From an uncultured Muribaculaceae bacterium (GTDB taxonomy: Bacteria > Bacillota_I > Bacilli_A > RF39 > UBA660), in NCBI GenBank assembly GCA_964514935.1, contig CAZEVZ010000001.1, positions 1-46,422 of the forward strand: DNA of 46,422 nucleotides. The letters are read 5' to 3'. Position 1 is the stretch's first letter, and every line of letters begins with the position of its first letter. The notes under the pieces are model-generated. The model did no database searches and was not told the DNA's origin. It saw nothing but the letters and a program-made list of their open reading frames with translations. Of this stretch, positions 26,544-28,056 are shown piece after piece. Made by a program: the position numbers and the translations under genes.

Positions 26544-27164
26544 ATGAAGAAAATATGGAAGGATAATGCGAAGTTAATATTGATTGTATTTATAACAGTA
26601 GTAATAGCTAGTGGAGCAACGTATGCAGCCACGACAATGTATGATTCGAATATCGTTGGTTATGATAATACGACCAGTGGCTTAAGGTCAACAAATGTTC
26701 AATCTGCTTTAGATGAAGTATATAGTGCTGCAACAGATTATACATCTGTTAATACAAGATTAACTGATGTAGAAAATACTATTGGAAGTGGTTCATTGAC
26801 TACTACTTCACAAAATTTAATTGGTGCTGTTAATGGACTTAATAATCAGATTACTGCGCAGGATATAACTTCCCAATTTACAATAAATGTTACACCAGTT
26901 AATGACGTTATAAAATCAAAAGTATTTAAAACTGGTAATACTATCGTTATTTCTATTGTTGGTACAATAACGTCATCGAGCTCATTTCTTGTTTCAAACA
27001 TTCCAACTGCCTATCGTCCAAAGAGTTTTGTTTGTGTGGGTATTGTCTTGGAAAATGGCGCTGCTGTACCTGTGTACTTTTATGGGTCAAATGATGTTAT
27101 ATATGCAGATAGTCTTTTTATGGCAGGAAATACAGTTCGTGGAACTCTTGTTTATACAATATAA
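26544..27164 (+). CDS. Secreted tail-fibre-like family protein, paralogue 3 (short form, distinct C-terminal head)
   Basis: It shares the N-terminal ~60 aa of the family, then has TRLTDVENTI...NLIGAVNGLNNQI and a ~100-aa beta-rich C-terminus unrelated to the long forms. Confidence 0.85.
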   Translation: MKKIWKDNAKLILIVFITVVIASGATYAATTMYDSNIVGYDNTTSGLRSTNVQSALDEVYSAATDYTSVNTRLTDVENTIGSGSLTTTSQNLIGAVNGLNNQITAQDITSQFTINVTPVNDVIKSKVFKTGNTIVISIVGTITSSSSFLVSNIPTAYRPKSFVCVGIVLENGAAVPVYFYGSNDVIYADSLFMAGNTVRGTLVYTI

Positions 27165-27194
27165 TTTGAGATATAGAAGTATATTTAGCGATAT

Positions 27195-27225
27195 ACTACT
27201 TTTTCTATGTAAAAGAAAAAGTAGT
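27195..27225. terminator. Hairpin left of cassette C
   Basis: Stem ACTACTTTTTC (27195-27205) / GAAAAAGTAGT (27215-27225). A T-rich tract follows after a short gap. Confidence 0.45.
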
Positions 27226-27243
27226 AATTCCTACTTTAATTTT

Positions 27244-27457
27244 TTGTCAACTATAAGTTGCAAAGTCCTTAAGTATTTTACTTGAGGACTATCATTTCTA
27301 TTAAACTAATACCATAAAATAAGGGAATGTGCAATAAAAATGGTGGTAATTTTTGAGAAAAAATTTTGTGTCAAATTTTCTTCATATTCTTTATAAAGCC
27401 TTTATTTATAGGCATCTGCAGATGTTATAAAAGTTCTTAAGTAAAATACTTAAGGAC
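27244..27457. promoter_or_regulatory. Switch cassette C (candidate invertible promoter)
   Basis: The dyad is at 27244-27264 (one A substitution). IR-L is at 27265-27289. IR-R is GTTCTTAAGTAAAATACTTAAGGAC at 27433-27457 (23/25). The minus-strand promoter is TTGCAC (27334-27329), 17 nt, TGgTATTAG (27311-27306). Confidence 0.6.
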
Positions 27458-27471
27458 AGAATGGTGATAAT

Positions 27472-28056
27472 ATGAAGAAAATATGGAAGGAAAATACGAA
27501 GTTAATCCTGATTGTAATCATAGCAGTCGTAATAGCTAGTGGAGCAACGTATGCAGCAACAACGATGTACGATTCAAATATTGTTGGTTATGATAATACG
27601 ACTAGTGGCTTAAGGTCAACGACAGTACAAACTGCATTAGATGAACTATATGGTAATGTGGCTGAAGTAATACTTAATATTAAGAATTTTATAGGTAATA
27701 GTACACTTACAACTACAGATCAAACATTAAGTGGTGCTATTAACGAACTTGATAGTGAGGTTGCAACAAAATATGGAACAATTAGTTCGTGGGTGTTCTT
27801 TGATGATGATTCAAGTCATTATGGAGATGTTTCTGCACACGGGTATAAGCAGTATGAAATAAATGTAGTCAATGCAGGTAGCCCAGTTCCTCCAGATGTA
27901 TATACTGGTTATATAGTACTTAATGATAGGAATTCAAATCTAATTGTTACTATTACTTCTAAGAGTGGAAATACTTTAACTTTTAGATGGTATAATCCGA
28001 CGAATTCTACACAGAGAATTCAAGGAATTGTCGCAATATTTAGGTATTTAACTTAA
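27472..28056 (+). CDS. Secreted tail-fibre-like family protein, paralogue 4 (short form, third type of C-terminal head)
   Basis: It shares the family N-terminus, then has TLSGAINELDSEV and a unique ~100-aa C-terminus. Confidence 0.85.
   Translation: MKKIWKENTKLILIVIIAVVIASGATYAATTMYDSNIVGYDNTTSGLRSTTVQTALDELYGNVAEVILNIKNFIGNSTLTTTDQTLSGAINELDSEVATKYGTISSWVFFDDDSSHYGDVSAHGYKQYEINVVNAGSPVPPDVYTGYIVLNDRNSNLIVTITSKSGNTLTFRWYNPTNSTQRIQGIVAIFRYLT

Follow-up and report, generated by a model that had tools for sequence, protein, structure and literature searches.

Tandem genes for tail-fiber-like proteins with unrelated heads, each downstream of a repeat-bounded cassette with a candidate promoter

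The tandem genes and their upstream cassettes

The DNA analyzed here, referred to as the window, is a stretch of 46,422 nucleotides (contig CAZEVZ010000001.1 of assembly GCA_964514935.1, positions 1 to 46,422). Its main features are two tandem plus-strand genes, gene 1 (26544-27164) and gene 2 (27472-28056), whose products of 206 and 194 amino acids (aa) are called P1 and P2; both open reading frames (ORFs) lie where a first-pass annotation, made from the letters alone, had placed them. With three relatives they give four complete paralogues and one partial paralogue within 32 kb. P1 and P2 can be aligned only over residues 1 to 106 (63% identity), and their C-terminal heads are without similarity to each other (BLASTP E value of 0.49). 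A short segment bounded by inverted repeats lies upstream of every complete gene. We lean toward the reading that this is an exported family of binding proteins derived from tail fibers, the members of which are switched individually by inversion of a promoter cassette through a recombinase encoded elsewhere. The features of the locus and of the paralogues are as follows; the cassettes of genes 1 and 2 are labeled switch 1 and switch 2.

26312..26336, no strand: conserved left flank TGTCAACTATAGGTTGCAAA, outside switch 1; direct repeat D1 starts at 26312, and the duplicated unit begins here
26337..26361, no strand: left arm of switch 1, GTCCTTAAGTATTTTACTTGAGGAC, an exact match and an 11-3-11 near-palindrome
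26378..26406, minus strand: candidate sigma-70 extended -10 promoter of switch 1 (TTGCAC, 17 nt, TGg, TATTAT), reading away from the gene
26505..26529, no strand: right arm of switch 1, reverse complementary to its left arm at every position
26535..26539, plus strand: ribosome-binding site (RBS) of gene 1, GGTGA
26544..27164, plus strand: gene 1, encoding P1 (206 aa)
26544..26627, plus strand: predicted signal peptide of P1 (aa ~1-28)
26640..26723, plus strand: fiber repeat of P1 (aa 33-60)
gene 1, codons for aa 61-104, plus strand: predicted helical connector with the NLIGAVNGL motif
gene 1, codons for aa 105-206, plus strand: orphan head
27194..27245, plus strand: 13-bp hairpin followed by a U-rich tract, 3' of gene 1 (RNA fold of -21.1 kcal/mol for 27165-27250)
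27265..27289, no strand: left arm of switch 2
27306..27334, minus strand: candidate promoter of switch 2 (TTGCAC, 17 nt, TGg, TATTAG)
27433..27457, no strand: right arm of switch 2, with 2 mismatches, both in the inner half-site
27472..28056, plus strand: gene 2, encoding P2 (194 aa); N-terminal module like that of gene 1, the other type of connector (GNVAEVILNIKNFIGNSTLTTTDQTLSGAINEL), and an orphan head at aa ~95-194
13224..13415, no strand: cassette of the paralogue at 13430 (arms 13224-13248 and 13391-13415)
13265..13293, minus strand: candidate promoter of that cassette
13430..14494, plus strand: long-form paralogue of 354 aa, the N-terminal module with a ~270-aa head ending YWLRS...GVRPYFYIG
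31440..31632, no strand: cassette of the paralogue at 31648 (arms 31440-31464 and 31608-31632)
31481..31509, minus strand: candidate promoter of that cassette
31648..32640, plus strand: long-form paralogue of 330 aa counted from MKKIWK (start of 31636 in the ORF list)
3..818, plus strand: fifth paralogue, long form, C-terminal part only, cut by the window edge

The shared N-terminus was detected by tblastn within the window at 13430, 26544, 27472, and 31648, with E values of 1e-28 to 1e-36. The fourth of these most likely starts at 31648, with MKKIWK, rather than at 31636, because the ATG at 31636 falls in the conserved leader AATGGTGAT. At the DNA level, the four complete copies are homologous (80 to 100% identity) between positions of about -235 and +180, counted from the ATG, and identity drops to background beyond these limits. 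Because the homology stops at about +180, the constant unit is made up of the upstream cassette and ~60 codons at the start of the gene. The hairpin and U-rich tract 3' of gene 1 are probably a terminator, and genes 1 and 2 would therefore be separate transcription units, each with its own cassette. Proteins identical to P1 were found in two other ENA samples, and proteins identical to P2 were also found in other ENA samples.

The window was scanned for the 25-mer arm GTCCTTAAGTATTTTACTTGAGGAC, allowing at most 3 mismatches. Eight matches were obtained, compared with 0.00 expected by chance, and they pair up in inverted orientation as 13224/13391, 26337/26505, 27265/27433, and 31440/31608. Each of the four pairs has inverted repeats of 25 to 31 nt and bounds a segment of 192 to 193 bp that ends 14 to 15 nt before the ATG of a family gene, which is the arrangement by which invertons are recognized: inverted repeats flanking a short intergenic segment just upstream of a gene. 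The annotation had assigned the tandem genes a switch each; as sequence architecture this is correct, and it extends to every complete paralogue.

Every arm on its own forms an 11-3-11 near-palindrome, but the pairs are true inverted repeats: in switch 1, reverse complementing the left arm reproduces the right arm at 25 of 25 positions, the asymmetric TTT at the center and a T/G pair among them, whereas only 20 of 25 positions match when the arms are compared as direct repeats. A dyad with an asymmetric center is the form that would be expected of the core site of a recombinase. The arms are conserved across at least 3 genomes. In the cassettes of related contigs L055 and L058/L059, the outer half-site and the center are exact, and the inner half-site reads TACTTTrTAACA, covarying on both arms. 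The left flank outside the arms is conserved as well, in 9 cassettes from at least 3 genomes. Rfam gave no match in the cassettes.

Hairpin/inverted-repeat elements with a similar core, TTAAGTAnnTTACTTAA, were also seen in a contig of a different organism (L084, from ENA ERZ773224), at 3989-4013, 5678-5702, and 8832-9029, and include one inverted pair ~170 bp apart. They precede three genes that encode proteins with a prepilin-like N-terminus (KGITLIALVVTIVVMLVLAGVSI) in common and with different C-termini (a BspA-like leucine-rich repeat protein and others). These elements may be a related inverton family controlling pseudopilin-like proteins.

Within the cassettes, the best-conserved interior block is TTGCA(C/A)-17-TGg-TA(T/A)TAT on the minus strand, present in 9 cassettes from at least 3 genomes. 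The hexamers are constant between genomes, and the sequence of the spacer varies. A simple promoter scan also flagged this position in switch 1 (26405-26378, TG present). The segment thus appears to contain a promoter, as an inverton should, and repeat-bounded cassettes of this kind correspond, as far as sequence can tell, to standard promoter-inverton architecture.

The N-terminal module and the diversity of heads

The N-terminal module comprises a signal peptide and a single ~30-aa repeat of the form (V/I)xYDNTTSGLxxxNVQxA(L/I)DE(L/V). The two motifs that had been noted for this module, MKKIWK(D/E)N..KLILIV...ASGATYAATTMY and VGYDNTTSGL.ST.VQ.ALDE(L/V)Y, are present, as is the second motif of the short forms, (N/T)L(I/S)GA(V/I)N(G/E)L.

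The N-terminus has the layout of a Sec signal peptide, as had been suggested: a basic n-region (MKKIWKDNAK), an h-region of 12 hydrophobic residues (LILIVFITVVIA), and a c-region (SGATYA) followed by A. Hydrophobicity over 19 residues peaks at positions 11 to 29. T26 (position -3) and A28 (position -1) are invariant in 36 of 36 members, including the divergent MKSFIKKNI subfamily, in which the h-region is different. Small, uncharged residues at -3 and -1 downstream of n- and h-regions are what signal peptidase I would recognize, and invariance of T26 and A28 is the pattern expected from selection on such a site. Cleavage therefore probably follows the invariant T-(Y/F)-A, and the proteins are predicted to be exported.

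A giant plus-strand protein of 2,846 aa, encoded at 1107-9647, has essentially no match in Pfam or NCBIfam. Its N-terminus, MNDRKRMILTIVAIFLVGLVITGGSYAYFSW, is one that we take to resemble TasA/SipW-class signals; no model matched it. The annotation had raised the possibility that the family and this giant share a processing enzyme, which the comparison does not bear out. After the likely cleavage site, the giant (GGSYAYFS) has aromatic residues (Y-F), whereas the family has A-T-T; neither the N-terminal module nor the giant matched a SipW/TasA-class model in NCBIfam, even at E values up to 10, and no sipW-like peptidase was seen in the window. For TasA, an aromatic residue at P2' has been reported (PMC10269814).

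The repeat extends far beyond this family. An exhaustive HMMER search with a profile of the N-terminal module (alignment A2) matched 3,359 cluster representatives at E values of 1e-3 or below, 756 of them at 1e-10 or below. The module was divided into signal peptide and repeat because these matches form two classes. The first is the family proper: about 70 of the best 150 matches are short proteins (105 to 322 aa) whose own N-terminus matches profile positions 1 to 103. The second consists of large multirepeat proteins in which only profile positions ~34 to 66 recur, up to 49 times. Giant proteins of Flavobacteriaceae and Prolixibacteraceae are filled with the repeat, and Flavobacteriaceae dominate among the matches listed in the contig scan. 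The repeat also occurs twice in an incompletely sampled Thermoplasmata ORF from a metagenome-assembled genome (L045). Within Bacteroidota giants (L004, L007, L009, and L012; P0062 to P0067), the repeat YDNTTSGLTATNVQAAIDE is arrayed in tandem and reaches 49 copies in one protein of 5,298 aa. Pfam matches on the giant multirepeat proteins were rejected as spurious and repeat driven. No Pfam or NCBIfam model matched the ~30-aa repeat itself, which thus appears to lack a curated model.

A link between the SGL..NVQ.A(L/I)DEL motif and phage tail fibers had been suggested in the first-pass annotation. This link holds transitively, through the multirepeat and viral relatives, and does not hold directly for P1 and P2. 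All 10 of 10 multirepeat relatives matched PHROG tail-fiber families, chiefly phrog_2137, with E values of 1e-6 to 1e-17. The repeat is encoded in at least 94 stretches of IMG/VR viral contigs, and 5 of the 7 viral ORFs scanned matched tail-fiber PHROGs 2137, 8147, 2712, 7760, or 7037. At the level of the family, the phage-fiber association of the repeat is correct, by a chain of homology.

The heads show the opposite of the constancy of the N-terminal module. A word-index search with P1 returned 59 proteins, all matched through the N-terminal module only (13 to 83% query coverage) and with many different C-termini; in all, the family numbers at least ~100 database proteins. For 60 short-form members, the head was cut after the second motif, L.GA.NEL, giving heads of 78 to 230 aa (median, 104). 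These 60 heads fell into 51 clusters unrelated by BLAST, 47 of them singletons. Pfam on 106 family members gave Gp10_C in 17, Phage_fiber_rpt in 6, DUF6273 in 3, and TIG in 1, and the others were unmatched. The Gp10_C match in relatives reached an E value of 5e-33; Gp10_C is the C-terminal, tail-collar-type domain of the T4 baseplate protein gp10. The heads of P1 and P2 are orphans, present only in the same strain in other samples, and a word-index search with the P1 head alone returned no candidate. The description of a constant N-terminal module with unrelated heads is therefore borne out both in the paralogues and in at least ~100 database proteins; "swappable heads" is a fair name for them, and their diversity is striking. 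The family is without a match in Pfam, NCBIfam, or PDB and without a name in the source, and the diversity of its heads is notable.

The long forms of the window end in YWLRS...GVRP(Y/A)FYIG, as annotated, and their heads had been compared with DUF6273-type domains. Partial matches to DUF6273 (PF19789) were obtained for the paralogues at 31648 (21.3 bits; E value of 2.7e-4), 13430 (17.4 bits; 0.0042), and 3-818 (14.9 bits; 0.025). All three are below the Pfam gathering threshold of 23.5 bits and span only the last third of the model (profile positions ~104/127 to 170 of 172). Three database relatives reached E values of 1e-3 or below, the best being 1.2e-5. The relationship of the long-form heads to DUF6273 is likely remote or partial, and we do not call them members. 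DUF6273 has been reported as a C-type-lectin-like domain of phage receptor-binding proteins and of targets of diversity-generating retroelements (DGRs) (PMC10743442).

The stretch between YWLRS and GVRP in the long forms (14360-14480; equivalents at 32500-32630 and 680-810) was observed to be the most variable among the paralogues, and it corresponds to the place of the DGR variable region in C-type-lectin-like targets. No reverse transcriptase or template repeat was found in the window. A distant family member was also seen at 1419-3528 of L022 (Clostridia bacterium RGIG9176); in its 184 aa it combines a signal peptide with a degenerate motif and a head, and its gene lies directly 3' of, and overlaps by 8 nt, the gene for a 520-aa protein with a prepilin-type N-terminus. 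This arrangement hints at a tie between the family and type IV pilus-like systems in some lineages.

A proposed promoter switch and its alternatives

The arrangement suggests the following mechanism. Each protein would consist of a Sec signal peptide, one ~30-aa tail-fiber repeat, a short predicted helical neck, and a gene-specific C-terminal head of ~80 to 270 aa, on which ligand specificity presumably depends; from these parts we infer proteins that are exported and cleaved, fiber-like in oligomeric state, and adhesin-like or ligand binding in function. In the assembled state, the candidate promoter, if active, would fire away from the gene at every locus, and this state would be OFF. Assembly of every locus in the OFF state would fit a population in which only a minority of cells have any given locus ON. 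A site-specific recombinase encoded elsewhere would flip the cassette. When the cassette was flipped in silico, the -10 element came to lie 55 nt upstream of the ATG, in what would be the ON state. The resulting 5' untranslated region (UTR) of ~50 nt would have the arm hairpin (-10.2 kcal/mol) at its start and the GGTGA RBS after it, a geometry that looks sensible on paper. The junctions predicted for the ON state are TTGCAAAGTCCTTAAGTATTTTACTTGAGGACTTTTATAATC on the left and AATAGAAATGATAGTCCTCAAGTAAAATACTTAAGGACA(A/G)AATGG on the right. With independent switches, single cells would display different subsets of heads; the combinatorial display that had been proposed would follow from this mechanism.

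Several observations weigh against this reading. The promoter points away from the gene in 11 of 11 cassettes (in the window and in L001, L055, L058, and L059), the orientation being read from consensus assemblies. Among contigs with the exact protein, none showed a flipped cassette: they had it in the orientation seen in the window or broke off within the right arm. We considered these contig breaks as signs of inversion heterogeneity and rejected this: with an outer half-site and leader that are identical in every copy, collapse of the repeats suffices to explain the breaks, which give no evidence of inversion. No true copy of the cassette was found in JGI metagenomes (two scans, with 0 matches and with 71 single chance matches) or in an IMG/VR scan (2 chance matches). 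The claim of private switches therefore stands as to a repeat-bounded promoter cassette for each gene and is not borne out as to a flipped copy. No Phage_integrase or Resolvase domain was found in the ORFs of the window (46 kb) or among the called genes of ~60 kb of related contigs (L055 to L059). The promoter of switch 2 should be weaker than the others because the last base of its -10 element is G, and the total of promoter-like matches in the region is not above that of shuffled sequence, for which reason the promoter call rests on conservation. A divergent subfamily (L056 and L057; another sample) is without the cassette; the switch would therefore be an addition of particular lineages rather than something that defines the family.

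Also on this side of the balance are results for the proteins. P1 and P2 gave nothing significant in Pfam, NCBIfam, PHROGs, or PDB, whether searched as single sequences or as profiles (best PHROG match, phrog_10153; E value of 0.018), and they had no tblastn match in 50,697 phage genomes; a direct phage match may be missing because they are too short to score. AlphaFold2 modeled P1 from a 36-sequence alignment with a predicted local distance difference test (pLDDT) score of 58.4 and gave helices at 52-79 and 89-104 at low confidence only. The long form (22 sequences) scored 49.6, and Foldseek on that model found no match in PDB with an E value of <1. Pfam and NCBIfam scans detected no cell-wall anchoring domain.

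The uniform orientation, together with the lack of a recombinase nearby, would also follow if the cassette were a fixed regulatory or insulator element or a repeat resembling a miniature inverted-repeat transposable element (MITE), with the genes using a fixed, weak plus-strand promoter or a regulator that binds the dyads. Each arm is a hairpin, a scan flagged three arms as terminator-like, and a weak plus-strand promoter match, GTGTCA-18-GATAAT, lies at 26440-26469. That match, however, is not conserved across genomes, whereas the minus-strand candidate is. Each cassette has a different gene to its left (a Big_2 protein gene, nth, gene 1, and a miaB-like gene), so the leftward promoter has no conserved target, and a conserved outward promoter of that kind would have no evident purpose in a fixed element. 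The better match of the switch 1 arms as an inverted than as a direct repeat, asymmetric positions included, also argues against fixity. The MITE version was rejected: all 8 of 8 arms share the left flank and the context of a family gene, each in the same flank-to-gene arrangement, and no target-site duplication is visible. We regard a fixed element as unlikely. A more elaborate form of switching would be an engine like that of shufflons or of vsa genes, moving promoters and swapping heads. The arms would all be one and the same recombination site, so that a recombinase may act beyond single cassettes. Gene 1, for instance, is enclosed by two mutually inverted arms 735 nt apart (pair I2), the right one of switch 1 (26499-26529) and the left one of switch 2 (27265-27295); recombination across this pair would flip gene 1 whole and bring it under the control of the leftward promoter of switch 2, and recombination between directly oriented arms could excise or insert gene cassettes. 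Such an engine would help to explain the sharp homology boundary at about codon 60 and the very high diversity of heads, and its fibers would be domesticated phage receptor-binding proteins that serve as phase-variable adhesins or as masks of phage receptors. We consider this extension quite unlikely and put it forward as speculation.

Two other alternatives concern the proteins. If the genes were remnants of prophage or tailocin fibers without a cellular surface role, the fiber repeat and the Gp10_C, Phage_fiber_rpt, and DUF6273-like heads, which are typical of phage receptor-binding proteins, would be accounted for, and a Bro-N protein is encoded at 38926-39420. Virion proteins, however, are not expected to have a signal peptide, and every family member has one; the five copies are scattered among gatAB, nth, dnaD, lexA, miaB-like, and priA genes, where capsid, tail, baseplate, and lysis genes are lacking; the reading frames are intact and do not differ between samples; and each copy has a dedicated regulatory cassette. 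We hold a remnant to be highly improbable. The other alternative bears on topology only: the N-terminal hydrophobic segment could be an uncleaved signal anchor, making the proteins type II membrane-tethered fibers. The hydrophobic stretch of ~19 to 21 residues is long enough to span a membrane, and, no other anchoring domain having been detected, a tether would explain retention on the cell. Against this, T26 and A28, small and uncharged, are invariant across divergent subfamilies in the manner of a conserved signal peptidase I site, and a membrane-tethered protein of 200 aa would barely cross the Gram-positive wall implied by the Mur ligase and spore genes of related contigs. A signal anchor is thus somewhat unlikely, and a cleaved, exported form of the switched family remains the one we prefer.

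The surroundings of the family are those of an ordinary low-GC chromosome (GC content of 25 to 39% in the window). Around family members lie genes for a GT4 glycosyltransferase, a Big_2 surface protein, and a polysaccharide deacetylase, with gatA, gatB, and a dnaD-like gene; further genes are nth, lexA, a radical-SAM gene, a miaB-like gene, a Clp ATPase gene, priA, and a rumA-like gene. The statement that no phage genes are near held up: the neighbors in the window are housekeeping genes, and no capsid, tail, baseplate, or lysis gene, and hence no phage or tailocin module, was found among them. Judging by their names (labels XIEF21, WILK20, and RGIG), the samples in which identical or related genes occur are probably ruminant gut metagenomes. 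Related contigs encode spoVA, yunB, and Mur ligases, from which we infer that the hosts are walled Firmicutes of the spore-former type.

Other features of the window were noted in passing. The Bro-N domain protein (38926-39420, plus strand; E value of 4.5e-7) is the sole phage-associated domain in the window; in L056, too, a family member has a Bro-N gene nearby. Directly 3' of gatB lies a full-length OLE (Ornate Large Extremophilic) RNA (20433-21017, plus strand; 359.8 bits; E value of 3e-102), notable in a host that is apparently a ruminant gut anaerobe. It is followed by ORFs at 21025-21549, 21670-23241, and 23244-24614, none with a Pfam match, the first of which could be oapA-like. A T-box leader lies near the right end of the window (44897-45087, plus strand; 95 bits, with a gathering score of 93).

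Significance and relation to known systems

Should the switches prove functional, the family would be a Firmicute equivalent of systems in Mycoplasma and Bacteroides that give every surface-structure locus its own promoter switch. The difference would lie in the cargo, namely, exported proteins built of phage tail-fiber parts with a very large repertoire of heads. Gut and rumen bacteria would then reuse phage receptor-binding modules as phase-variable ligand-binding proteins, and the family would supply many compact (~100-aa) binding domains of unknown fold as well as a new recombinase target site. On the practical side, the repeat YDNTTSGL..NVQ.AIDEL, although found in thousands of cluster representatives, had no match among the Pfam and NCBIfam models.

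The regulatory logic is of a known kind. In Mycoplasma penetrans, the mpl genes for P35-family lipoproteins reportedly have an invertible promoter each, as Horino et al. are said to have described in J Bacteriol in 2003. As in that system, the genes here are paralogous, include tandem members, and encode putative surface proteins; each has its own short, repeat-bounded promoter cassette, which would allow independent ON/OFF control, and the mpl recombinase acts in trans, as proposed here. Unlike the mpl lipoproteins, the cargo here is predicted to be Sec exported and tail-fiber-like, with unrelated heads. The inverted repeats are longer (25 to 31 nt), each forming a dyad of its own; the host is apparently a walled, spore-forming-type Firmicute; and inversion is proposed from the sequence.

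In Bacteroides fragilis, the promoter invertons of the capsular polysaccharide loci are controlled by the global serine invertase Mpi; gut invertons more widely were reportedly found with PhaseFinder by Jiang et al. in 2019. The capsule loci resemble the present family in being dispersed, in having one inverted-repeat consensus and a promoter segment of ~200 bp, and in their surface products, and one distant recombinase serves all of them. They differ in that they control polysaccharide operons in Bacteroidota, through Mpi and a different inverted-repeat sequence; no Mpi-like gene was identified in the window or in the related contigs. In Clostridioides difficile, the RecV-dependent switches of cwpV, flgB, and cmrRST are served by one tyrosine recombinase encoded elsewhere. 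That organism is likewise a Firmicute with several short invertible elements, putative here, upstream of surface-protein genes. The cwpV switch, however, uses a terminator in the 5' UTR and a fixed upstream promoter, whereas the promoter here is apparently inside the cassette, and the C. difficile targets are mutually unrelated, whereas those here are one paralogous family.

On the side of the proteins, the likeness is to phage receptor-binding proteins, which have the ~30-aa YDNTTSGL..NVQ.AIDEL repeat, a helical neck (predicted here), and exchangeable heads (T4 gp10/gp12-type, Gp10_C; DUF6273, PMC10743442). The differences from phage fibers are the signal peptide, the housekeeping-gene surroundings, the single copy of the repeat, and, for P1 and P2, heads that match nothing known. 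Shufflons swap coding C-termini within one gene, whereas here whole genes with fixed heads would be turned ON or OFF, and the proteins are without a pilin-type N-terminus. A target of programmed inversion in which a pilus adhesin is joined to a phage tail-collar domain has been described (PMC9881135); there, site-specific recombination varies a domain like that of phage receptor-binding proteins on a bacterial surface appendage, as is proposed for the family described here.

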